From contig JBGVRX010000011.1 in NCBI GenBank assembly GCA_045128835.1, positions 31,548-95,547 on the forward strand: a DNA stretch of 64,000 nucleotides. Direction: 5' to 3'. Origin of the DNA: Bacilli bacterium. Lineage in GTDB: Bacteria; Bacillota_I; Bacilli_A; RFN20; DUOF01. Of the stretch, positions 25,889 through 42,808 are shown in pieces (positions within the stretch are counted from its first letter, which is position 1; every line of letters begins with the position of its first letter). Made by a program: the position numbers and the translations under genes. Under the pieces are notes generated by a model, which did not search any database, was not told the DNA's origin, and saw nothing but the letters and a program-made list of their open reading frames with translations.

Positions 25889-26806
25889 ATGTCATTATCT
25901 CTTCTAATCGGAGGAATAACTCTTTTTATATATTCAATAAACACATTAAGTCAAAGTTTGTCGTGTCTTTCTTTAGAAACAATAAAAAAGAAAATATTAA
26001 AATTTACCTCTTCTACAAGAAAAAGCATGCTTGCAGGATTCCTATCAACTATTATAATCCAATCAAGTTCCGCAGTTATTTTACTTACAATAAGTCTAAT
26101 AAACGCCAAAATATTAACATTTAACAATAGTATAGGAATCCTCTTAGGAAGCAATATAGCTACAACGATAACATCATTTATAATCGGCTTAAATATCGAA
26201 AAAATTTCATCATACATAATGCTTCTCGGATTCATTTTAATGATTAGCAAAAACAAATTTAACAAAATCGGTGCTATAGCATTCAATATAGGATTACTTT
26301 TTTTTAGTTTATTTTTAATGTCTACCTCAATAGAATCATTAAAAGATTCTCAAACTTTATACAACTATATTCAATACGTATCTTCCTCATTTATTTTAAG
26401 TTTAATTGTTGGAACATTAATAACTATAATCCTTCAATCTTCTGGTGTCTTTATCGCTATTTTACAAGTTCTTTCTCTTTCAGGTTTTATTACGATATAT
26501 CAAGCAATTCCATTTATATTCGGCGCGAACATTGGGACTACTTTCGACTCTTTTTATGGCATATTAAACTCCGAAAAAGACTCAAAAAAACTAGCCCATT
26601 TCAACCTCTTCTTTAACATTGGATCTGTCTTGTTATTTTCTCTATTAATAGCCCCATTTTCTAGTTTGATTGAAATTATAACTAGTTTATTTCAGACAAA
26701 TCCAGCACTTAATATAGCCATAATAAATATTCTTTTCAATTCTCTAGGAGTAATACTAATTTTACCTTTTATACCTAAAATAAAAAGATATTACGCTAAA
26801 TGGTAA
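25889..26806 (+). CDS. Na+/Pi cotransporter family protein (short YqeW-like form)
   Basis: QSSS...GSNIATT and QSSG...GANIGTT repeats; many TMs. Confidence 0.88.
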   Translation: MSLSLLIGGITLFIYSINTLSQSLSCLSLETIKKKILKFTSSTRKSMLAGFLSTIIIQSSSAVILLTISLINAKILTFNNSIGILLGSNIATTITSFIIGLNIEKISSYIMLLGFILMISKNKFNKIGAIAFNIGLLFFSLFLMSTSIESLKDSQTLYNYIQYVSSSFILSLIVGTLITIILQSSGVFIAILQVLSLSGFITIYQAIPFIFGANIGTTFDSFYGILNSEKDSKKLAHFNLFFNIGSVLLFSLLIAPFSSLIEIITSLFQTNPALNIAIINILFNSLGVILILPFIPKIKRYYAKW

Positions 26807-28216: not shown

Positions 28217-29956
28217 CTATTTGTTGATAGAAATATGTAATTCTTTTAATTGACGTTCTCCGACAACATTTGGCGCTTCACTCATTGGACATACTGCACT
28301 TGCGTTTTTAGGGAAAGCAATAACATCTCTGATATTATCTGTATTAGTTAATAACATTACTAATCTATCTAATCCAAATGCTAGTCCACCATGAGGAGGA
28401 GTACCATACTTTAATGCTTCAACAAAGAAGCCAAATTTAGTATTAATATCTTCTTCAGTTAATTCTAGTGCTTTAAACACTGTTTCTTGAATCTTTTGAT
28501 CGTGAATTCTTATAGAACCTCCACCTGCTTCATAACCATTAATAACGATATCGTATGCTTTAGAATAGCAGTTAGCTTGGTCATTTAACAATTTAGCTTC
28601 ATCTCCATCTTTAGGGCTAGTAAATGGATGGTGACAAGAAACATATCTCTTTTCTTCTTCACTATATTCAAATGTAGGGAAATCTGTTACCCATAACATT
28701 TTGTAATCATTTTCTTTAATTAAATTTAAATCTCTGGCAAGTTTACATCTTAAAGCACCTAAACTAGTTTTTACTATATTCTTTTTATCTGCAACAAATA
28801 AAACTAAGTCTTCATTTTCTAAACCTAATTTTTCTTTTAAAGCGCTAACTTCTGTTTCACTTAAAACTTTAGCAATACTTCCAGTTAATTCTTCACCAAT
28901 TTTTAAAGTAGCCAAACCACTTGCTCTATAAGTTTTCGCATATTCTGTTAATTTATCTAAATCTTTTCTAGAGTATTTACTAGCAACACCTTTAACAACT
29001 AAACAGTTAATTAAACCGCCATTATTTAAAACATTGCTGAACACACTGAATTCTGTATTTTTAAAGATTTCACTAACTTCATTAATCTTCATTTCAAATC
29101 TTAAGTCTGGTTTATCACTACCATAATCATTAATTGCATCATCATATTTCATACGCATTAAAGGTAATTTAACATCTACATTTTTAATATTTTTAAAGAT
29201 TCTTGCAACTAAAGATTCTGCTAATGTCATAACATCATTTTCTTCAACGAAACTCATCTCAATATCAATTTGAGTAAACTCAGGTTGACGGTCTGCTCTT
29301 AAATCTTCATCTCTAAAACATTTTGCTATTTGGAAATATTTATCCATTCCTCCAACCATTAATAGTTGTTTAAATAATTGAGGAGATTGAGGTAATGCAT
29401 AAAATTTACCTTTATTAACTCTACTTGGAACTAAATAATCTCTAGCACCTTCAGGAGTAGACTTACACAAAATAGGAGTCTCTACCTCTACAAACCCAAC
29501 TTCATCTAAAAACTTTCTTGTTTCCATACAAACTTTATGTCTAATCATAAGTTCATTTTGAATAGATGGTCTTCTTAAATCTAAATAACGATATTTAAGT
29601 CTAGTATCTTCTAAAGCATCAGTTTCATCTGCGATTATAAAAGGTGGAAGTTTAGCTTCGCTTATAACTTTTACATTACTTACTTCTATCTCAATATCTC
29701 CAGTTTCCATTTTAGGATTCTTTGCTTGTCTTTCTACAACTTTACCTTCTACTTGAATTACATATTCATTTCTAATATTACTCAAAATATCACTAAACTC
29801 ATTACCAAATACTAATTGAGTAATACCATATCTATCTCTTAAGTCGATAAAAACTAAATTACCAAAATTTCTTTTTTTAGCAACCCATCCTGCAAGTGTA
29901 ACTAATTCACCTACATTATTAATTCTTAATTCACCATTTGTTTTACTTCTATACAT
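28217..29956 (-). CDS. aspS: Aspartate--tRNA ligase
   Basis: [46 protein letters not shown]. Confidence 0.98.
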
Positions 29957-29969
29957 TTTTATTCCTCCC

Positions 29970-31037
29970 TTAATGATGATGTTCATCTATACTTTCTAAA
30001 TCTTTAATAAAATCTTTAAACAAAACTGTACTTTGTTGTTTGCTTAATGAATTTCTAACTTTAATTGTTTGCTTCTTTATGTCTTCTTCCTCAATTATTA
30101 ATGAATATGTAACATTAACACGATCCATTAAATCATCTAAACGCTTTAAATCATACTCTTTGTAATGAATTTCTACGACAGCCCCTAACTCTCTTAAAAT
30201 TTCACTTACATACAATGCATATTCAAAACATTTATCATTTACAGGTATGATGTAAAAATCTACTTCTTCTTTAAAATCAGGGAATATTTCTTGTTCATCC
30301 ATTAATTTGATTAGTTTTTCAAAGTTTATTTGGCTACCAATACAATCAATTAAAACATTGCCAATTGTATCAATAAGACTATCATATCTTCCTCCAACAA
30401 TTACTGCTTCATAATTATCGATATCAATATTATAAGCAATACCCGTGTAGTACTCTTTTAAAACAAGATTATCAGCTTCTTCATAATTAACCCCTAAGTT
30501 CTCTAAGGTTTCTTTAATAGTCTCATAATAATCTTCATCTGCACCTACATTTTTAATTTTCAAATTATAGCCATTTAAACCCAAGAAATTAACTATTCTT
30601 AAACTTAAAAGAATATTCTCTATATCTAGGTAAGGAGACTTTTCGCCAATACATTCAAAGCCAAATTCAAAATGACTAGCTTTAGAAGATTCTTTCTTAT
30701 TATATTGATATACTTCCTTTAAATACATAAGTTTTAGAGGCAAACTCTTATCTACATAAAGTTTACTCTCTACGACACTTCTTAAAGTTGATATTGAACT
30801 ATCATAATTTAATGAAGCATCATTAGTAAATCTTCCTTCTATAGTAAACAATCTATTTTCAATATCTTCTTCATAGCAAGCCTTAAACAAATTACTTTCT
30901 TCAATACAAGAAGTTTGAACCATCTTATAACCATATACATTACTTACTTCCTCTATTGTATCCTTTAAAAACATATACCTTTTATAATCAGCAGGCATCA
31001 AATCTTTAAATCCTCTGCATAACTTATATTTGCTCAT
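29970..31037 (-). CDS. HisRS-derived protein with degenerate active site (intact ORF, anticodon-binding domain retained)
   Basis: [13 protein letters not shown]...PLKLMY, FGFECIG, GGRYD and the C-terminal anticodon domain follow Bacilli HisS; motif 2/3 arginines, RPEGT and RGLDYY are lost; hisS position; AGGAG RBS before ATG 31037. Confidence 0.8.
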
Positions 31038-31056
31038 TCTCATTCTCCTTTCCAAA

Positions 31057-31285
31057 CAAAAAAAGTCCCTATTTAACAAATAGGAACTTGAAATTTCATA
31101 CAAGCGGTACCATCCTAATTTATAGATTTCTCTATACACTTAATTGACTATTAACGCTAGTTACACGAAAATGGATACTCAATTCCCCATTTTTCTTCCA
31201 GAGTGTCCCAACTAGTTCAGTAATAAGTGCTTTCACCTAACCACTCTCTCTTACAATTACCTACCTAATCTTCTTTCCTTCATTA
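31057..31285 (-). promoter_or_regulatory. T-box riboswitch (probably Asp-specific) for the hisS-like/aspS operon
   Basis: AGAGA and GTGAA stem I motifs, specifier GAC-A (31205-31207), AGGATGGTACCGC antiterminator (TGGTACC 31106-31112), terminator agttcctattt...aaatagggact plus T-run. Confidence 0.85.
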
Positions 31286-31298
31286 GATTTACCCTTAT

Positions 31299-33661: not shown

Positions 33662-36600
33662 TTATAAAGACTCAAATCTTCTTTTTGTAATAAATAGAAC
33701 TGCAAGCATTGGAATAACCACCATAGACATTATTACACCAAATTCTACAAAATCAGCCAATTTATTTGATGTAGTTAAATTTTCTTCATAACTATCCATC
33801 GCCTTTTCAAATTTAGTTTTTAAAGTTTCATAGAATTCCAACTTTTGTGCATCCAATTCTTTTACATTTACATCTTTTAAATTCTTTTCTATTTCCTTGA
33901 TTAATTTCAAGTTTTTCTCATTAACTTCATCTGTTAATTTATCTATGCTTTCATGAATAATGCTAGGATTTTTTGTTGTTTTAATTTCATAAATAACTGG
34001 ATCACTTGCATACATCAAATCACTTTCTTTAACTCTTACACTAATTCTATAACTAGTATTTTCTCTAAGTCCTGTAAAGATGTTTGAAGAAGTATATTCA
34101 CCATTGTCTATACGGTACTCTAAATCCATTTGAAGTTCTACAATTATCCTATTATGATAAATGTCTAGAGTTACTTCTTTAGAAGTTCCTTTAGCTTTTT
34201 TAACTTCAATTTCAATATTAACATCAGCAGAATCATTCTTAGTATTAACAACTACATTTATTACGTATGTTCCTGGGTTAACAATTGAGTTAACTTCATT
34301 TGTACCACTTAGATACTTAATTACACATTCATATCCTCCACAATCAACAACAGGCACGATATTTTCACCTGTGTAATCGTATTCTGTTTGTTCAACTGTA
34401 ATACTGTCTTTTACATCTCTCTTGTTGATAACAACTGTAATGTCTTCGTAATCTTTTGGTAAACAATAATTTGTATCATCTACTATAACTTTAATTGTAT
34501 ATGAACCTACATTAATACGATTTCCCTCATATTCTACATGTGCCTCTCCAACAAGAGTAACATCTAAAATTTGCTCTGTTCCATCATAGTAGAACTCTGC
34601 GTTTTTATCGTAATTAATTTCAATTGGTTTAGGATTAATAACAAAATATACTTCATCCTCACTAATAGATAACACATAATTACTTCCTGCATCTAAGGTA
34701 CCCAAATTGATTAGATATTCGCCAACATCTTCGCCGCTTTCTCTTCCTAAAGTTCCATCAATTGAATCACCTTCAAATAAATCTTCACTTAAAATATATT
34801 CGATATTTGGATTTGTATCACCAAATGTTTTTGAAGTTTGTACAGGAGTAACTTCAATTGCTTTTGGAACAATTGTTAATGTTATTGTGTTATTGTCACT
34901 TAATTTGTAGTTAGCAGCATCTTCACCTTCTATTGAAACAACTTTAATTGTATAGACACCAGCACCAACCATATCTTGGACTTTTTCATTTCCTCTATAA
35001 TACTCATATACTACTACAGCATCGTCAAACACATCAATATTGCTAGTTGTTATATCATTTACAAATGAACAAGCACAATATGTTTGTTCTTTATCTACAA
35101 AATTATCAAACGCTACTTCTAATTGAATAATTTCAAAGTTAATAACACTATTGATAATTCTATAATTGTTATTAACTGGCTTAATTGTCATCGTGTATTT
35201 TCCCACATTTACTGGTGCTTCACCATCTTCAGTATTAAATGCCATCTCATAACTTTCACTACTGCTGATTGTAGGATGTTGTTTGTTAGCGTTATAAACC
35301 AAAGTTGTTGCGCCATATTCTACAACAAGTCTTTTTTGTACAACAGTTATTGTCTTTGATGAAACTACAGATATATAGTTATTCAAATCATCATCTATTT
35401 GGGCTAGAACAATATATTCTCCTAATCCAAGAATCTTATCAACTACAACTTTATCCTTTAAAACAATGTATGTAACTGTTGCGTTTCTTCCATCTGCAAA
35501 AGCAATATTATCTAATCTATAATCTACGCCAGCAGAACTATATTCATACTCTTCACTAACTGTTCCATAACCTAAAGTGTTTTCAGCTTTTTTAACCTCA
35601 ATTATAGCAGTTAAAACTAACTCATTATAGTTGCGATTTCTCATAATAGCTTTAACCTCATATGTTCCTGCATTTACAATATTTTGAATAACATCTTCTT
35701 CAACATAATATACTACATCAGCTTCATTATTATCGCTAAGTATTTTATTGCTTACACCAAATTCTACATTTTTACCATCATAAGTAACAGTAACATCTTC
35801 AAATGTTACACCCTCAATGTCTAACTTATTGATTGTATAGATGCCATCTTCGAAATAAACAGCATATTGATCATTATCATATGTTCCTGAGATTAAATAT
35901 GTTCCCGCATTCAATCCATCTTCTTTAGTTAAAACAATATTCAAATCATCACCTTCAACAACAGTTCCAGTTGTTGTATATGTAAGCAATTTCAATTCTT
36001 CTAAATAATCACTTTCTTTATTGTCTATCTTAATATGCAATTCTCTTTGAGTAATTTCATACTCTCCATTAACAAAAGTAATATCATAATTGCTATTGTC
36101 ATACGTTGCAGTAATAGCATATTTTCCTACAGTTTTGCCCTCTTCCTTAATTAATTGTAGATTTAACGAAGCCTCACTATGAACTACTCCACTTGTTATT
36201 TGATATGTTAATGGTACTATAGGGTCTCCATATGAACTTATCTTATTATCAATTGTTATTGCAACAACTGATTTTTCAATAACTAAAGTAATAACCTTTT
36301 CACATCCATTGTATACTTGCGTACTTACAAATTCAATCTTAACTGAATAAGTACCCACGCCGATAGCGCTATCAACTGTTTCACCATTTTTAGTATAAGT
36401 ATAGTTAAATGTTGGATTTAAAACTTCATCACCATTTGCATCTTTTAATTTAACCTTTGCGTATTTCCCTATAAAATCTGTTCCTCTATAAACATACGTT
36501 ACTGTATCATCTGAAATAATTTCTGTGTCAATTCCTACTATTTTTAAAGTTCCTTCATTAAGAGTAATATTATAATTTTCTTCTAATTCAAGATCATTAT

Positions 36601-39600
36601 TCAATACTATTAATAAATCATAAACTCCACACTCTAGGTTTGCACTCAACTCATAATGAACATTATCTTTTACAATACTATAAATGACTTGAACCTTATC
36701 ATCTCCTAGAACTCCACTAGAACTAATAATGATGTTTGGAACACTTTCCTTATATGAAATTTCATAATCTGCAATACTAATCGTTAAATCTGCCTTTGTA
36801 ATTGTGAAAGTTTTTGATTGTGTTTCTTCAGTTGCTTTATAATTTTCATTTTCAAAAACAACACTTACCACATATTCACCAGCATTTTTAATTGAATCAA
36901 AATTAAATCCTACAGAAATATTATTGCCATCTTCAACATAATAAGCGCTAATATCATTGATTCTTTCTTCTCCTGTATAAGTTCCAGATATTTCGCCTTC
37001 CCAAATAACTTCCACTTCTTTTGGATTAATTACTAAATTCTCTACACGAATTTCTCCCAAGTTATAATATTCGCTATTAGTTATATCAAAACTAGCAGCA
37101 ACTCTATAAATACCTGCATTTATAGGCTCTACAGCATTACCTTGTTCATCAATATAAACTATTGTTAAATTACTTATTGTATCATTAAATTTATTAGCAA
37201 ATTCTATTTTTAAATCTAATTCTTTCTTTGCACCATCATACTCAAATTCATGTTGTTCAACAGTTGCTGTCAATGTTTTACTCCTAAGAGGAACTGTAAA
37301 TGTAATATATTCGTTATACACAACAGTTTCGCCTTTAGTTGAAGCAAATACTTCTTTAGATTTTATTGTTACATTGCGTTCAACAATATCTTCTAAGCTA
37401 TAATCAAATTCAATAGTCTTTTCTTCTAAGTTACCACTCAAATACTCAACAATTACTTCAACAATTGCTTCATCACCATAAATAATTTCTAAATAAGTAT
37501 CCTTTAATCTTATATCTTTTACAATTACATCTAACCAATCATTTAGATCTTCTTCTCGAATATTATTTGCCTCTAAATAATTATTGTAATATTCTAGAGT
37601 TTCCTCACTAACATTTTCAGCAGTATATCTATTATTCAATAAATTATATTTAGTTTTAATAGCATTAGCCTTATAGATAAATTCCTCGCTAGCACCATTC
37701 AATTCATCAAAAGCAGTCTTATATTCATCTAACATTAAAGTAATTCTTTTTAAAGTAACTTTTTCGATAACTCTATATGTTTCATGAACAAGTTCTGTAT
37801 CAACAAAAACCAATTCATCTCCTAATAAGTCATCTTCACTTAAATTAGCATTTAATGTAAGTTCTTCCGTACTACCATCAGAGAATGTAACGATTCCTTT
37901 TAAAATCCATTCATTTTTACTATCCACTTCAAGAACACTATTATCTGCATCAAATTCAACACTCTTTGGAACTAATATTTGTCCAACAAAAGTTGAATTC
38001 AAAGTATATTCTTTTTCAACTAATAAAGCGCCGCTAATAACAGAAGCATATAAGTTGTCGTTATTCATAGCAAAAATTATCAATCCGCTATCATCACTAA
38101 CATATTTTTGACCATCAATTGTAAGTTCTACATCTTTTTCTCCAACACTTAGAGTATAATAATTTTCTAATTTAGAGTTCTCATCAGATGCATTAACATT
38201 GCTTATTCCAAAGAAAACATAATTTACACTTTCTTTATTTCCGTTTTTTCTTGCTAAACCATAGTTTTTATTTACGCCAGAATAATAAACATTAGAACCT
38301 CTACCAGAGAAGAATACAGAAGAATCAAACTCTGCATAGTTCGTACAATCTACAAATGTAGCTTTGATACTATCTAAACTAATAAGTAATGCAGTTGATT
38401 TATCTGCATTCAATTCCATATAGTTAGTAATATTTCTAAATTCTATTTCGCTATTTGCTCCAACAAATTCACCAACAAAAGCAGCATAATATTTAGCAGT
38501 AATATTTCCCTTTAATGTTAAGTTTTTAATAATAGTTGCCGCATCAGAAGAAGCATAATTTATAAATGCACCTAATCTTGAATTTGCATTATTCATCGCT
38601 AATGTTATTTCTTTGTAATTTCCATCTATACTACCCATATAAGGGAATGCTTTACTAATCGCCAATCCTTTGAATGAACTAGATGTGAAGTCTAAATTTG
38701 CTCCTAACACAAAATTAATAGTTAAGTTAGAAACTCCATAAGTGTAATAATCACCTAAAGTTACAGGAATTCCGTAATTAATTATTAAAGATAAATGTTC
38801 AAATGTTGTAACATCACTAACAGTAACTGTTAAGTATGAAGAAACCTCAACACCATCCAATTCTACAACACTATATAAACTCGAATTTGTATCAACGTCT
38901 AAATTTTCCAAATCACTTGAGTATGACTTAACTGTATCCAAATCAATAGCAATATCTTTTGAAACAATGCGATTATCCTCTAAATCAAAAACTTCATAGT
39001 ACTTATGAGTTCCATCACTCATAACAAATAAAATTACATATCCTGAAACGCTTGCATAATTTCCATATAGGTTGTTTCCTTCATTAGTATTAAATACAAC
39101 ATCAACACTAAAGTTTCCGTTATTTAGAGAAACTTCAAATCCCTCTTTTACTAAACCTAATCCAAACAATCTTGCAGATACAACTTCATTTGTACTTGTA
39201 TAACTACCGCTAATCTTGTGAATTGAATTTTGAATATATAAATCTTCATCAGAAACTATAATTCCTAAGGAACTCTCTTCAACATAATTATTAGAAAGTT
39301 TTACATTTCCTGAAACTACTACGTTGCTTAGCGTAGCGTAATTTGAATAACCAATAGCACCGCCAACAAAGCCAGTTCCCTCAACATCTACAGATGCAGT
39401 ACTGTTATAAAAACTTCCCCCAACACCACTTAATCCACCTGTGGCACTTTGATAAATAGAAGAAACTTTAACGCTACCACTCGCACTAACTTCATGGAAT
39501 GATGCATTTTGTGCTTGTCCAACAATACCACCAGCAACAAGCAATAATTCTTCATCATCAACATATTGCAACGAAATGTTTGTGTTAATAACTTTAACAT

Positions 39601-42600
39601 TTGCTATTTCAGTGTTATTAATATACCCTGCAAGAGTTCCTACAATTAAACCTCCAGTAATAGCAGGATTCTCAATAGTCAAATTTTTAATAGTTGCATC
39701 ACTAACAACCCCAAATAATCCATTGAATTGTCCTGAACTAATTACTAAACCTGTAACTTTAAAGTTACCTCCATCAAAATGTCCAGTAAATGGAACATCA
39801 TATGTTCCAATTCCAATCCATTCACCACTCAACTCTAAATCATGTCTTAAAACATAATAATAGTACTCTCTAATATTTGAAATTTCTTTAAATTGTTCTA
39901 CACTGAAAATTTCATAAGGATTTTCATATGTACCATATCCAGTAGAAATAGAAGTGCCCTCAATTCCTTGATTATAATAATAAGTATTAAAATTAGTAAC
40001 TCCATTCGAAATAATTAAGGTACTCTTACCACGTTCATTTAAATTTAATTCAATAACATTATCAAACTCAAGAACTTGACCATTTAGTGTATATGTATAG
40101 CCAGCTACACCTTTAACAAATATTTTAGTTGAATTTGTGGAATTAATAGTTTTATATTCGAAATCGCTAACACTAATTTCGTCTAATTTTTCTAGCATCG
40201 CCTCAAAGTCAAATGGTGATTCAGCAGTTCCCTCACCTTCAACTAAATTTAGAATACTTTCTTCACTAACAAAAGAAAAATCTTTCATGTACAAATAGTC
40301 TGTATCACTGTAATAATATTCTCCATCTACCTTAATAGTAACAAAATGATCATCACTATCGTAAAAAGAAGTTTTTAAAGTGTGCCACTCATTAACAGAA
40401 TAATTATCATCATTAACATTTATGCATTCCATTAAATCTATACAAATAGTTATAGTTAGATTTGTATGAGTAAAATATTTGAAAGACATATTAAAATAGC
40501 CCTTGCCAGATGAGCGTAAAGATAAAATTTCTCCATTTAATTCTGTACATTCAGGATTAATAGAAACTACGCTCTCATTATCTACTTCCGTTAAAACAAA
40601 CCCCAAAGAAGAACTATAACTTATATTTTCATCAGTAATTAGATGAGCATTGTATTTAAATGATATTTCTAAATCATCGAAACCAACTTCTGACACTATA
40701 ACAATTATATCATTTGTATATTCTAAATATTCACTCAAATTATAGTTTCCATCTACATTAGGATTAACTATATTTCCGTTAATCTTAACCACTACAGATT
40801 GAGACTCTAATAATTCTTCAAAAACAATAACTGGATTTGTATTTTCCCAATCAAAATAAATAGTATCTGTTCCAACACGGAAATCACTTCCACCAATTGT
40901 AGCCCCTACAAATTCAGCATAAAGTTTTTCTTCAAACATCAAACTTCCAAAGTAAACAGCATCTATTTCATCATTCCCGTATGCATCTTTTTCATAACTA
41001 AAAGTAACAACATCATTTTCAAATAAATTCAAACGAACTCTTTTCCAAATTCTAGAATTGCTTGTTTTTAATACAACTTCATCATTTACTTTTACTATTA
41101 ATAAGTCTCCATCTTCAGTTAATGCCAAATATTCAAAATCTAATATTCCTCTAGCAGGAGCAATAAATGACATCGCTGAAGTAGTATTAGACAGCCCTTT
41201 AATATTAGATCTTATAATTTCGTCTCCATCATAGATATCTCTAACGAAAGGATTTACTTCATCATTAATAAAAAATGAATCCCCAACTAATTTTTCTTCA
41301 TACAAATAAAATAAAATTGTTCTAGAAATTGTTTCACCGCTACTAAAAGCAACCTCTACAGCATTTGCCTCACGTAAACCACTTAGCACATAAGCGCTTT
41401 TTTCTTCATTATATTCTACTTTAATACCGTTTATCGAAACAAGAACAGTAACATCTTCTTCAACTTCTCCTACTGTAACATTATACTCTTCGTTTTTATC
41501 TATAACTACTTTAGAACCGTTAACAACTATTTCGTTATTTACTTTTACTTCTGCAACTGAGCTAAATTCAACAGCATCAAAAGCAACATTTTTCAAGTAA
41601 AAACAATCATCCCCAACTGCATATGCTCCATTGTTAGAATAATATGAAAAAATAATTCGATAGTTCTTAACTTCGTAAAAATTAAGTGAAACATTAGTAA
41701 ATCTATCAAAATTTCCTGTTTCTTCAATTATTTTGTCACCAGCAACATAAACTCTGAAATAATCAAAATTTTCTCTTCCTGACATTAAGTAACTGAAAGA
41801 GAATACACCACTACCAAAAACATCCATATATAACTCAGAATAACTTCCATCTTTAGTGTTAGTTGATTTGATAGCTACATCACCATCATATTCTTCCAAT
41901 ACATACATATTTTTAGAATCATTTACAAATGTTAAACCATTGCTAGCCACTGTGTTTAAAGAAGCGTTGTAAATCAAAGAAAAGTTTCTTGTTTTATAAG
42001 ACTCTAAATTATATGAAATCTCTATATTATTATTAATTTTATAGTTTTCATTATTTTTCAAATTGTAAGAAAATTCACTCCCTACAACTTCAACACCATT
42101 TAATTTAACAACAACATTGTAGTTTGTAGCATTTGCAAAAGAAAGAATTCCAGAATTTGATTCATAAGTATAATAAATTATAGACTCAGAATTATACGCT
42201 ACACCATCAATAGAAAAATTTAACAAAGGTGAATATAAAGTGTTATCAAAACTCAAACCCTTCAAGTAACAGCAATCATCGCCTCTCGAATTACTAATAT
42301 CCTTACTATATTCAACAACAATAGAATTTGTTTGATTTTCTTCGCTATACCAAGAAAATTTCTTCCAAACGCCTTCATTACCGCTATCAGTAACCATTTC
42401 AGCTCCATTAACAGAGATTGTTATAACATCCCAACTTTGTTCACTTGAAACAAGATAATCAAAACTAATTTCACCAATTCCGGTAAAAGTAAGGGTTAAA
42501 GTTGATTTGGTTTCATCCTCTCCTACATTTGTACTCTTGATGACATTAGTTTCATCTTTAATTGCATTTTCAAAAGGATAATCACCTTTACTAGTTACTG

Positions 42601-42715
42601 TAATTCCTTCTAATTCAAAATTACTTGTATCAGCACTTACCTTGTCATTTGAGCACACAAAAAAGCCAAACAACATAATTGCTATTAGCATAAAATATGA
42701 TTTAAATTTCTTCAT
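33662..42715 (-). CDS. Giant (~3000 aa) surface protein/adhesin with GLUG-like and MBG-like repeats, C-terminal membrane anchor
   Basis: Signal peptide (VSA-D), four N-terminal beta-rich repeats, GTYENPYEI...FTGHFDG...GLFG region, many YDG/NAGTY/YGD repeats, C-terminal TM plus KRR. Confidence 0.85.
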   Translation of the reverse strand: MKKFKSYFMLIAIMLFGFFVCSNDKVSADTSNFELEGITVTSKGDYPFENAIKDETNVIKSTNVGEDETKSTLTLTFTGIGEISFDYLVSSEQSWDVITISVNGAEMVTDSGNEGVWKKFSWYSEENQTNSIVVEYSKDISNSRGDDCCYLKGLSFDNTLYSPLLNFSIDGVAYNSESIIYYTYESNSGILSFANATNYNVVVKLNGVEVVGSEFSYNLKNNENYKINNNIEISYNLESYKTRNFSLIYNASLNTVASNGLTFVNDSKNMYVLEEYDGDVAIKSTNTKDGSYSELYMDVFGSGVFSFSYLMSGRENFDYFRVYVAGDKIIEETGNFDRFTNVSLNFYEVKNYRIIFSYYSNNGAYAVGDDCFYLKNVAFDAVEFSSVAEVKVNNEIVVNGSKVVIDKNEEYNVTVGEVEEDVTVLVSINGIKVEYNEEKSAYVLSGLREANAVEVAFSSGETISRTILFYLYEEKLVGDSFFINDEVNPFVRDIYDGDEIIRSNIKGLSNTTSAMSFIAPARGILDFEYLALTEDGDLLIVKVNDEVVLKTSNSRIWKRVRLNLFENDVVTFSYEKDAYGNDEIDAVYFGSLMFEEKLYAEFVGATIGGSDFRVGTDTIYFDWENTNPVIVFEELLESQSVVVKINGNIVNPNVDGNYNLSEYLEYTNDIIVIVSEVGFDDLEISFKYNAHLITDENISYSSSLGFVLTEVDNESVVSINPECTELNGEILSLRSSGKGYFNMSFKYFTHTNLTITICIDLMECINVNDDNYSVNEWHTLKTSFYDSDDHFVTIKVDGEYYYSDTDYLYMKDFSFVSEESILNLVEGEGTAESPFDFEAMLEKLDEISVSDFEYKTINSTNSTKIFVKGVAGYTYTLNGQVLEFDNVIELNLNERGKSTLIISNGVTNFNTYYYNQGIEGTSISTGYGTYENPYEIFSVEQFKEISNIREYYYYVLRHDLELSGEWIGIGTYDVPFTGHFDGGNFKVTGLVISSGQFNGLFGVVSDATIKNLTIENPAITGGLIVGTLAGYINNTEIANVKVINTNISLQYVDDEELLLVAGGIVGQAQNASFHEVSASGSVKVSSIYQSATGGLSGVGGSFYNSTASVDVEGTGFVGGAIGYSNYATLSNVVVSGNVKLSNNYVEESSLGIIVSDEDLYIQNSIHKISGSYTSTNEVVSARLFGLGLVKEGFEVSLNNGNFSVDVVFNTNEGNNLYGNYASVSGYVILFVMSDGTHKYYEVFDLEDNRIVSKDIAIDLDTVKSYSSDLENLDVDTNSSLYSVVELDGVEVSSYLTVTVSDVTTFEHLSLIINYGIPVTLGDYYTYGVSNLTINFVLGANLDFTSSSFKGLAISKAFPYMGSIDGNYKEITLAMNNANSRLGAFINYASSDAATIIKNLTLKGNITAKYYAAFVGEFVGANSEIEFRNITNYMELNADKSTALLISLDSIKATFVDCTNYAEFDSSVFFSGRGSNVYYSGVNKNYGLARKNGNKESVNYVFFGISNVNASDENSKLENYYTLSVGEKDVELTIDGQKYVSDDSGLIIFAMNNDNLYASVISGALLVEKEYTLNSTFVGQILVPKSVEFDADNSVLEVDSKNEWILKGIVTFSDGSTEELTLNANLSEDDLLGDELVFVDTELVHETYRVIEKVTLKRITLMLDEYKTAFDELNGASEEFIYKANAIKTKYNLLNNRYTAENVSEETLEYYNNYLEANNIREEDLNDWLDVIVKDIRLKDTYLEIIYGDEAIVEVIVEYLSGNLEEKTIEFDYSLEDIVERNVTIKSKEVFASTKGETVVYNEYITFTVPLRSKTLTATVEQHEFEYDGAKKELDLKIEFANKFNDTISNLTIVYIDEQGNAVEPINAGIYRVAASFDITNSEYYNLGEIRVENLVINPKEVEVIWEGEISGTYTGEERINDISAYYVEDGNNISVGFNFDSIKNAGEYVVSVVFENENYKATEETQSKTFTITKADLTISIADYEISYKESVPNIIISSSGVLGDDKVQVIYSIVKDNVHYELSANLECGVYDLLIVLNNDLELEENYNITLNEGTLKIVGIDTEIISDDTVTYVYRGTDFIGKYAKVKLKDANGDEVLNPTFNYTYTKNGETVDSAIGVGTYSVKIEFVSTQVYNGCEKVITLVIEKSVVAITIDNKISSYGDPIVPLTYQITSGVVHSEASLNLQLIKEEGKTVGKYAITATYDNSNYDITFVNGEYEITQRELHIKIDNKESDYLEELKLLTYTTTGTVVEGDDLNIVLTKEDGLNAGTYLISGTYDNDQYAVYFEDGIYTINKLDIEGVTFEDVTVTYDGKNVEFGVSNKILSDNNEADVVYYVEEDVIQNIVNAGTYEVKAIMRNRNYNELVLTAIIEVKKAENTLGYGTVSEEYEYSSAGVDYRLDNIAFADGRNATVTYIVLKDKVVVDKILGLGEYIVLAQIDDDLNNYISVVSSKTITVVQKRLVVEYGATTLVYNANKQHPTISSSESYEMAFNTEDGEAPVNVGKYTMTIKPVNNNYRIINSVINFEIIQLEVAFDNFVDKEQTYCACSFVNDITTSNIDVFDDAVVVYEYYRGNEKVQDMVGAGVYTIKVVSIEGEDAANYKLSDNNTITLTIVPKAIEVTPVQTSKTFGDTNPNIEYILSEDLFEGDSIDGTLGRESGEDVGEYLINLGTLDAGSNYVLSISEDEVYFVINPKPIEINYDKNAEFYYDGTEQILDVTLVGEAHVEYEGNRINVGSYTIKVIVDDTNYCLPKDYEDITVVINKRDVKDSITVEQTEYDYTGENIVPVVDCGGYECVIKYLSGTNEVNSIVNPGTYVINVVVNTKNDSADVNIEIEVKKAKGTSKEVTLDIYHNRIIVELQMDLEYRIDNGEYTSSNIFTGLRENTSYRISVRVKESDLMYASDPVIYEIKTTKNPSIIHESIDKLTDEVNEKNLKLIKEIEKNLKDVNVKELDAQKLEFYETLKTKFEKAMDSYEENLTTSNKLADFVEFGVIMSMVVIPMLAVLFITKRRFESL

Positions 42716-42808
42716 TCTATTGCCTCCTACTTCTTGCAAAAAACTACCGCTACTTTAGTATAACTAAAAAACTCAATATATTAAATAAACTAAGCCATAA
42801 ATGTTAAC

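Follow-up and report, generated by a model that had tools for sequence, protein, structure and literature searches.

GCN2 is a eukaryotic multidomain kinase, the histidyl-tRNA synthetase (HisRS)-like region of which binds uncharged tRNA. In this region, a degenerate HisRS core and an anticodon-binding-like region serve for binding, not catalysis (PMC4335047). HisZ, a nonenzymatic paralogue of the HisRS core that lacks the aminoacylation residues, represents the only HisRS paralogue function in Table 1 of a 2022 review, which also describes synthetase copies that were retained after losing activity, such as SLIMP, a SerRS-like protein, and one half of the TyrRS pseudo-dimer of trypanosomatids (PMC9437257). 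Here we describe a HisRS-derived, catalytically degenerate protein of 355 amino acids, P0001, encoded at positions 29970 to 31037 of a 64,000-nucleotide stretch of DNA (the window) from a Bacilli bacterium (GenBank assembly GCA_045128835.1, contig JBGVRX010000011.1, positions 31,548 to 95,547). In the full-text literature that was searched, with subscription journals and supplements outside its scope, no description of such a bacterial HisRS-like protein was found.

The closest relative of P0001 by descent is the Bacilli-type HisRS, whereas by concept, the closest systems are HisZ and the HisRS-like domain of GCN2. Like hisS of Bacilli, the gene occupies the slot between a T-box and aspS, and its product retains the GGRYD.L, RGxxD, and LR..G signatures; the best structure match is the Staphylococcus aureus HisRS (1qe0; E value, 1e-38), which has the same two-domain fold (TMq, 0.84). 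Unlike canonical HisS, P0001 lacks the insertion domain, the motif arginines, and the motif 1 proline, has an acidic anticodon-binding domain, and scores below the hisS cutoff. With HisZ it shares a HisRS core without aminoacylation residues that is, judging by sequence, nonenzymatic; unlike HisZ, it appears to have arisen independently and recently from the hisS of its own order and is controlled together with aspS by an aspartate-specific T-box, and no hisG was found. It resembles the GCN2 domain in combining a degenerate core with an anticodon-binding region but is a stand-alone bacterial protein in which that region has been acidified. Finally, the TyrRS pseudo-dimer and SLIMP are eukaryotic duplications or fusions, whereas in the present case, the original gene seems to have degenerated after a HisRS of a different type took over.

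The interpretation that we favor, and regard as probable rather than assured, is that P0001 is a selected, noncatalytic relic of the ancestral hisS that became redundant after a second HisRS was in place and that now acts as a binding protein. The ancestral state would have been an operon consisting of a T-box(Asp) leader, an active hisS as the first gene, and aspS. A second HisRS of a different type would then have been present in the family, beside the genes for tRNA-His and TruB, and the ancestral gene would have lost its insertion domain and the conservation of the residues that bind ATP and form histidyl-adenylate, with an intact, two-domain HisRS-like protein being kept by purifying selection. 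P0001 would no longer aminoacylate but would be a nonenzymatic binding protein built on the old scaffold, probably still a dimer, and would be made together with the aspartyl-tRNA synthetase (AspRS) whenever uncharged tRNA-Asp opens the T-box.

The HisRS-like gene, its leader, and its degenerate active site

The gene is a minus-strand open reading frame (ORF) of 355 codons plus TAA, without interruption, and is the first gene of a T-box/aspS operon. A ribosome-binding site (RBS), AAGGAG, lies 7 nt 5' of the ATG that starts MSKYK, an N terminus common to all 5 orthologues in the window's genus. The C terminus, EHHH, is followed by TAA, GGGAGG, 7 nt, and the ATG of aspS, so that aspS starts 13 nt past the stop codon. 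Pfam matches are tRNA-synt_His (PF13393; 69.3 bits) and HGTP_anticodon (PF03129; 40.5 bits). Against the TIGR00442 hisS equivalog model, P0001 scores 182 bits, below the curated cutoff of 286.75, and the match comes in two pieces (profile positions 3 to 168 and 231 to 404), with positions 169 to 230 unmatched. The closest solved structure, 1qe0, behaves in the same way: chain residues 3 to 168 and 232 to 410 align, and residues 169 to 231 are unmatched. According to these split matches, P0001 lacks the insertion domain (about 62 residues) at residues 165/168, with the reading frame maintained. A preliminary description of this DNA, made from its letters alone, had proposed the uninterrupted ORF of about 355 amino acids with its RBS at the head of a T-box/aspS operon, the in-frame deletion of a domain of about 60 amino acids, and the EHHH end just before the RBS of aspS, and all of these features hold.

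Contigs from two other DNA runs differ over the gene by 7 and 2 bases, with no indel inside, so the open frame is not an assembly accident. Two DNA runs (X3 and X5) have one extra T at window position 31097, in the region of the U-run of the T-box terminator, so that the leader is polymorphic in length. Pieces of the gene and leader, 151 nt long and with 0 to 2 differences, occur in contigs of two RNA libraries, a weak hint of expression given that DNA carry-over into such libraries is possible; stretches of the gene that these contigs leave uncovered are not informative. The features of the locus are as follows.

31079 to 31292, minus strand: T-box leader with specifier GAC (Asp) followed by a conserved A and a bulge, UGGU, that pairs with the end of tRNA-Asp (G73) (Rfam RF00230)
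31040 to 31078, minus strand: 3' arm of the terminator hairpin, U-run, and RBS AAGGAG of the HisRS-like gene (read from the sequence, AGTTCCTAT...ATAGGGACTTTTTTT and then AAGGAG)
29970 to 31037, minus strand: HisRS-derived, catalytically degenerate 355-amino-acid protein P0001, including the stop codon (Pfam, TIGR00442, AlphaFold2, and Foldseek)
30543 to 31037, minus strand: residues 1 to 165, N-terminal half of the class II core; motifs 1 (Pro to Ser) and 2 are degenerate, and LRPEGT has become LNYDSS (alignment)
30534 to 30545, minus strand: junction residues 165 to 168 (GADE), site of the in-frame gap left by the absent insertion domain of about 62 residues (TIGR00442, S. aureus HisRS, and alignment)
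30288 to 30542, minus strand: residues 166 to 250, C-terminal half of the core, with VLKEYY (HisA Arg lost), GGRYD.L kept, and FEKL (motif 3 Arg replaced) (alignment)
29982 to 30287, minus strand: residues 251 to 352, class IIa anticodon-binding-domain fold, the most conserved part of the family, yet acidic (PF03129 at residues 261 to 348)
29973 to 29981, minus strand: C-terminal His-His-His tail (sequence and family conservation)
28217 to 29956, minus strand: aspS, second gene of the operon, encoding a bacterial-type AspRS of 579 amino acids, P0093 (TIGR00459, 787.3 bits; cutoff, 373.85)

The leader matches the full Rfam model (positions 1 to 219) with 91.9 bits (E value, 7.9e-21); it came up when an E-value threshold was applied, and nothing between positions 26000 and 36000 reached the Rfam gathering score of 93. 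Orthologous leaders score 78 to 121 bits. In all 10 aligned leaders, the specifier-loop GAC-A is invariant, with CAC not conserved; the bulge is UGGU or UGGC, and the hairpin and U-run are present. Because GAC-A is invariant and the bulge matches tRNA-Asp (G73) but not tRNA-His (C73), the whole operon, ancestral and present, answers to uncharged tRNA-Asp. The hisS-aspS leader of S. aureus is named a histidine T-box in a passage of PMC7927825. A T-box with a GAC specifier precedes 6 of the 7 short-form loci (as we call the genes for P0001 and its one-piece orthologues) and 4 of the 4 canonical hisS-aspS loci examined in sister lineages of the order. The gene for P0001 is thus predicted to be transcribed with aspS from a tRNA-Asp-controlled leader.

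Class II synthetases use the arginines of motifs 2 and 3 for ATP binding, and the motif 1 proline sits at the dimer interface of these enzymes. Each of the changes listed in the preliminary description is present in P0001, which has TSCIE, LNYDSS, YQYNKK..ASHF, VLKEYY, and FEKL, with GGRYD retained; the proposed loss of the adenylation arginines is now seen to extend across the family. For this comparison, 37 short forms were aligned with 43 canonical HisRS, 9 of which are of a 407-amino-acid type with V at the motif 3 Arg and may not be true HisRS. Conservation in canonical HisRS reaches 80% or more in 47 columns; of these, the short forms keep 18, partly keep 9, and have lost 20. At the arginine positions of motif 2, HisA, and motif 3, where 32 to 42 of the 43 canonical HisRS have R, P0001 has Q111, K119, S121, V192, and K241, and these positions are variable across the 37 family members. 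For example, in 29 g1-type sequences, the motif 2 Arg position is occupied by K (12), R (6), Q (4), N (2), or C (2), and the motif 3 Arg position is occupied by K (14), N (5), T (2), C (2), or R (1). The arginines of the motif 2 loop are lost in the same sequences, the second being replaced by S (26), C (2), or N (1); the HisA Arg is variable; and R, P, and E of LRPEGT are lost and now variable. The motif 1 proline is replaced by S, A, or C, being lost in 34 of the 37 short forms and kept in 3. Conversely, the short forms retain the N-terminal G..D (RGxxD), E46, R86, P100, D138/E140, GGR.D.L, and the L-R..G of the anticodon-binding domain. P0095, a relative of G006, still has part of motif 2 (...KRQF), which suggests graded decay.

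At the positions that we take, from the Escherichia coli HisRS structures, to form the histidine side-chain pocket, the g1-type sequences have D (for E), T or S, and E in 29 of 29 sequences each and Y in 28 and 20 of 29; GGRYD is kept in 25 to 29 of 29. The persistence of GGRYD.L, the Tyr-Tyr pair, and the acidic pocket residues, as well as the frequent replacement of the motif 2 and motif 3 arginines by Lys (12/29 and 14/29), could be taken to mean that the protein is still an enzyme, either a HisRS with unusual active-site chemistry or a ligase acting on a histidine-like substrate. We consider this highly improbable: class II enzymes employ the arginines of motifs 2 and 3 for ATP binding, the histidine pocket is gone in the G010-type sequences, and the replacing residues vary (Q, N, C, S, and T), so the motif arginine positions are unconstrained.

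The scaffold itself is preserved. AlphaFold2 produced a confident model of P0001 from 80 alignment rows (predicted local distance difference test [pLDDT], 91.4; predicted TM score [pTM], 0.82), and Foldseek superimposed this model on the HisRS of E. coli, S. aureus, and Thermus thermophilus with a TMq of 0.84 to 0.90. Together with PF13393 and PF03129, these results place in P0001 a HisRS fold followed by a C-terminal class IIa anticodon-binding domain. This domain has a median pI of 4.81 and a net charge of −6 in the short forms, compared with 7.66 and +1 in canonical HisRS. The basic helix of the order's HisRS, SIKSQFKTxERK, has been replaced by another sequence that is conserved within the family.

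These properties bear on the possibility that P0001 is a GCN2-like pseudo-synthetase that binds tRNA-His, or uncharged tRNAs generally, to sense or sequester them. The fold of the anticodon-binding domain is kept, and this domain is the most conserved segment; moreover, the gene belongs to a tRNA-sensing (T-box) operon in 6 of 7 genomes. Against such a role, the median net charge of the domain dropped from +1 to −6, the canonical helix was altered, and the insertion domain and the motif 2 loop, which in the T. thermophilus HisRS complex (4rdx) reportedly hold the acceptor stem, are gone. With the acidic domain, the replaced helix, and the missing acceptor-side elements, tRNA is a doubtful ligand, and we consider this explanation unlikely; the tRNA-binding role put forward in the preliminary description did not gain support.

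The second HisRS and the descent of the short forms

The genome to which the window belongs (G000) is a metagenome bin of 1.40 Mb in 34 contigs and is 90.9% complete. A functional HisRS had been predicted to be encoded elsewhere in it, and one was identified: contig C26 carries a second hisS, the 439-amino-acid product of which (P0002) scores 396.6 to 396.8 bits against TIGR00442 (cutoff, 286.75), with motif 2, RGLDYY, GGRYD, and motif 3 all intact. The second-type hisS adjoins truB (TIGR00431, 240 bits) and a tRNA-His gene, the latter about 260 bp away and the only tRNA-His gene found, in all 7 loci examined (C26:64243-65894 in L001, as well as L029 to L034). The linked HisRS and tRNA-His genes may have been acquired or kept together. 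No T-box precedes the second HisRS in 5 loci.

The second type is the sole HisRS found in one member of the window's family (G005) and in 4 of 4 genomes (95 to 98% complete) of another family in the class, which marks it as a housekeeping enzyme. When another 200 genomes of the class were searched, its relatives at an E value of ≤1e-80 (about 50% identity) were confined to that other family, in which 4 of 20 genomes had one. Within the order, 7 of the 10 genomes examined in the window's family carry the second type, and G013 has one 35%-identical relative. Both HisRS genes of G000 have a GC content of 27.0% (genome, 29.3%), and this match gives no indication of contamination; from genome to genome, the order of divergence is likewise the same for both genes. 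P0002 most likely performs histidine tRNA charging in G000. The tRNA-His is ordinary, with an encoded G-1, C73, and the anticodon GUG, and an unusual tRNA-His as the cause of the enzyme swap was accordingly rejected.

Several other HisRS-like genes were observed in the order. G010 carries an extra HisRS of the PRK12420 kind (L058:1550-2830; 498 bits to NF009085 and 346 bits to TIGR00442) and has three HisRS-like genes in all. G013 (L057) also has an extra HisRS of this kind; in both genomes, it has YRDGPVK.GR.REF at motif 2 and V at the motif 3 Arg. The other HisRS of G006 (L056:1746-2975; 410 amino acids) has intact motifs 2 and 3, scores 281.1 bits, just below the hisS cutoff, and has a short C-terminal domain; it is presumably the working enzyme of G006.

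The degenerate HisRS core with its GGRYD and a weak match to the HisZ model TIGR00443 (88.6 bits) bring to mind an allosteric subunit of the HisZ type, serving a phosphoribosyltransferase or another metabolic enzyme. The match is far under the cutoff of 271.65 and is exceeded by the hisS score of 182; the gene lies in an aspS operon, not a his operon; and hisG (TIGR00070) and hisD (TIGR00069) had no matches in G000, whereas the controls matched in 14 of 14 genomes, although at 90.9% completeness, the absence of these genes is not proven. We therefore regard a HisZ-type role as barely credible. This agrees with the preliminary description, which had set the protein apart from canonical HisZ; the absence of the anticodon domain from HisZ, which it also asserted, holds only in part because several NCBIfam HisZ models (about 390 to 434 positions) align across that region of both P0001 and P0002. 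As for a link to histidine decarboxylase, a search with PF02329 gave no match, but the control genomes were equally silent, which makes it uninformative.

Several lines of evidence bear on descent from the hisS of the order. The hisS-aspS adjacency holds across the order, and the top matches of P0001 outside its family are the order's own HisRS (about 120 to 169 bits), with the second type at 52 to 62 bits. In a tree of 50 rows, the 16 short forms included constitute one clade (SH-aLRT, 97) that is separated from the second HisRS type by a branch with a support of 100; their position among canonical HisRS is not settled by the tree, and the G006 sequence sits on a long branch. When the short forms were forced together with the 13 HisRS of the order, the cost was 6.2 log-likelihood units, and this topology was not rejected (p-AU, 0.33; LG+G4). 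His/Cys-rich tails, which are unusual for HisRS, occur at the C terminus of 8 of the 13 canonical HisRS of the order and in none of the second type; the short forms keep HHH, with no variation among the 7 sequences of the G010 type and with a conservation of at least 90% for H354 over 43 family members. Synteny, the shared leader, and the tail indicate that the gene for P0001 is an in-place descendant of the ancestral hisS of the order, which is compatible with the tree.

The tails of the canonical enzymes, found in G013, G014, G015, G031, G021, G040, G026, and G036 (L017 to L022, L025, and L027), reach about 90 residues, with repeats like H-E-C-x-C-x-H-H-H. They could bind metal or tie the synthesis of the enzyme to the supply of His-tRNA.

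Distribution, selection, and linkage to aspS

Full-length, one-piece short forms (ORFs of 353 to 410 codons) were found in 7 of 11 species genomes of the window's family, which consists of uncultured gut Bacilli, G000 included. All 5 genomes of the window's genus carry one, the other four being 58 to 75% identical to P0001; outside the genus, the short forms of G010 and G006 are 34% and 28% identical to it, respectively. As for the other members of the family, G009 has a canonical hisS of 434 amino acids, G005 has the second HisRS type only, and no HisRS was found in G007 and G008 (85 to 86% complete). A collection of 5.8 billion proteins contains 40 full-length short-form clusters at 90% identity (353 to 370 amino acids) and 3 fragments, one of which is alone among them in bearing a source name, "histidyl-tRNA synthetase." A 43-member profile searched against 1.84 billion representatives retrieved 4 one-stretch clusters at 50% identity (585, 477, 381, and 282 bits), followed after a gap by ordinary two-stretch HisRS at ≤195 bits. 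The source bins of the short-form sequences are named "Bacilli bacterium" and come from animal and human gut samples. In a metagenome pattern scan, none of 456 pattern matches was confirmed as a short form; in a second scan, the best 80 of 99 confirmed relatives were all ≤31% identical, and those that aligned end to end had the length of canonical HisRS. The ESM Atlas yielded ordinary HisRS clusters only. With no further short forms from the metagenome scans, the wider gene context of the G010 type rests on a single locus.

No stop codon interrupts any of the 7 genomic copies or the 40 full-length database clusters, even though divergence within the family extends down to 27 to 34% identity. 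The ratio of nonsynonymous (dN) to synonymous (dS) divergence, estimated by the NG86 method, is 0.052 for the least saturated pair, G001/G004 (dN, 0.017; dS, 0.331), in which 14 codons differ with an amino acid change and 51 differ only synonymously. For G000/G002, dN/dS is 0.094 at a saturated dS of 1.6, and the remaining pairs give 0.23 to 0.34, likewise at saturated dS. By segment, dN/dS is 0.037 to 0.087 for residues 1 to 165, 0.065 to 0.167 for residues 166 to 250, and 0.056 to 0.076 for the anticodon-binding domain. Over the same pairs of genomes, the dN of the short forms exceeds that of the intact HisRS by a factor of 2 to 4. Taken at the level of sequence, the short form is under strong purifying selection.

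The intact orthologues and the dN/dS of 0.05 to 0.09 in the two best pairs rule out a decaying pseudogene, an outcome that the preliminary description had left to orthologue collection and dN/dS. A related explanation is that the protein is functionless, with its ORF kept open only for the sake of aspS expression (polarity or translational coupling), or that the gene is a young pseudogene. Loss of the gene without trace in G005 and the elevated dN relative to that of the intact HisRS would fit. The 14 versus 51 codons of the least saturated pair, however, reveal selection on the amino acid sequence, the fold is predicted confidently, and no stop has appeared at 27 to 34% identity. Furthermore, the G010 copy is intact and conserved with no aspS downstream, and the seven G010-type sequences are 58 to 72% identical to one another. 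This explanation is therefore very unlikely.

In 6 of 7 genomes, the short form is directly followed by an aspS gene, which speaks for the suggestion, also made in the preliminary description, that the short form is an accessory subunit or regulator of AspRS co-expressed from the T-box(Asp) transcript; the gap in G000 is short, as noted above, and the short form was retained where the bacterial-type aspS gave way to a different type. In G001 and G004, the AspRS encoded downstream is not of the bacterial type but is a 438-amino-acid enzyme of the aspartate-tRNA(Asn) ligase type (NF003483, 483 bits), so that a partner would need to bind two different AspRS architectures. In G005 (91% complete), where no short form was found, aspS comes right after a T-box that scores 111 bits (L061, C1:12450-17183), although the AspRS of G005 is 85% identical to that of G000. 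In G010, the short form is unlinked from aspS, being located between a YcxB-like gene and a DUF896-transketolase segment, near gltX; no T-box was found near this short form (L044) or around the aspS of G010 (L079). Moreover, the linkage to aspS is inherited from the ancestral hisS-aspS operon and hence is not independent evidence of a partnership. An AspRS-partner role is thus unsupported by these comparisons and, in our judgment, quite unlikely; an obligate partnership, in particular, is doubtful. A predicted complex of AspRS (21 rows) with the short form (43 rows) scored 0.00 in both runs and, having been run without controls, is uninformative. A role as a transamidosome helper was ruled out, given the presence of asnS (599 bits) and the negative outcome of a search for gatB.

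Further observations concern the AspRS genes of the family. The 438-amino-acid type is encoded downstream in a T-box(GAC) operon in G009 (L016) as well as in G004 (L038:5074-6390) and G001 (L012), and in these three genomes, AspRS has been replaced in place under the same leader. G001 and G004 carry an additional bacterial-type AspRS elsewhere (41% identity). The AspRS of G005 is 85% identical to that of G000, but for the AspRS of its genus-mate G010, the identity is only 54%, a discrepancy for which a binning error or transfer of the gene between family members could be responsible. Elsewhere in the window, three genes upstream of the operon, a 3025-amino-acid ORF (33662 to 42739, minus strand) encodes a protein that starts with a signal-like segment, contains many repeated domains, and ends in a membrane anchor.

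A candidate binding protein and its significance

Several observations weigh against the interpretation of P0001 as a selected, noncatalytic binder or limit its reach. The family has a narrow distribution, comprising 4 clusters at 50% identity and occurring in 7 of 11 species genomes, and the gene is dispensable in at least one lineage, that of G005, where the T-box directly precedes aspS. All the genomes are metagenome bins, and that of the window is incomplete; only one or two pairs escape saturation of dS, and the pairs compared are few and akin. The tree fails to reject a position of the short clade inside the HisRS of the order but does not itself place it there. Dimerization is assumed, and the motif 1 proline is lost in nearly all the short forms. 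Charge is only a proxy for RNA binding. Finally, several of the pocket positions are hydrophobic or otherwise changed in G006 and in the G010 type, two of them being V/L/I and V/I in the 7 sequences of the latter, so a histidine ligand cannot be the family-wide function.

If P0001 is indeed a binding protein, its ligand might be a protein or a small molecule rather than tRNA. The side-chain half of the pocket survives in the window's genus, which makes histidine, or an amine resembling it, a tentative candidate there. The C-terminal HHH is perhaps a remnant of the His/Cys-rich tails of the canonical HisRS in sister families and may hint that the ancestral enzyme had a second, noncatalytic role and that only this role survived. 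A more specific and decidedly speculative proposal, which we regard as possible without expecting it to be correct, is that P0001 is a bacterial HisRS-like sensor, a counterpart of HisZ or of the HisRS-like domain of GCN2 that arose recently from a housekeeping hisS once a second HisRS had taken over. Such a sensor would bind histidine, a derived amine, or uncharged tRNA and signal to a partner, and its synthesis would be switched on by uncharged tRNA-Asp.

The short forms are a lineage-restricted addition to the synthetase-like pseudoenzymes, dispensable in at least one relative, and their value lies in their youth and in the preserved intermediates. HisZ, the HisRS-like domain of GCN2, and SLIMP are ancient, and hence their rise cannot be reconstructed, whereas here the event is recent and its stages are found within one order: sister families retain an active T-box-hisS-aspS operon, and one family has a second HisRS along with the degenerate old gene, on which purifying selection is about as strong as on many enzymes. 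This makes the locus a tractable case of a gene kept for a noncatalytic role once its main job had been taken over. There is also a practical consequence: Pfam-based annotation (PF13393 plus PF03129) will call the gene hisS, and the number of HisRS or the identity of the essential copy may be misjudged in these gut Bacilli. Should the sensor proposal prove true, the birth of a regulator derived from an aminoacyl-tRNA synthetase would be traceable through the G006/P0095 type, then the G010 type, and then the g1 type.

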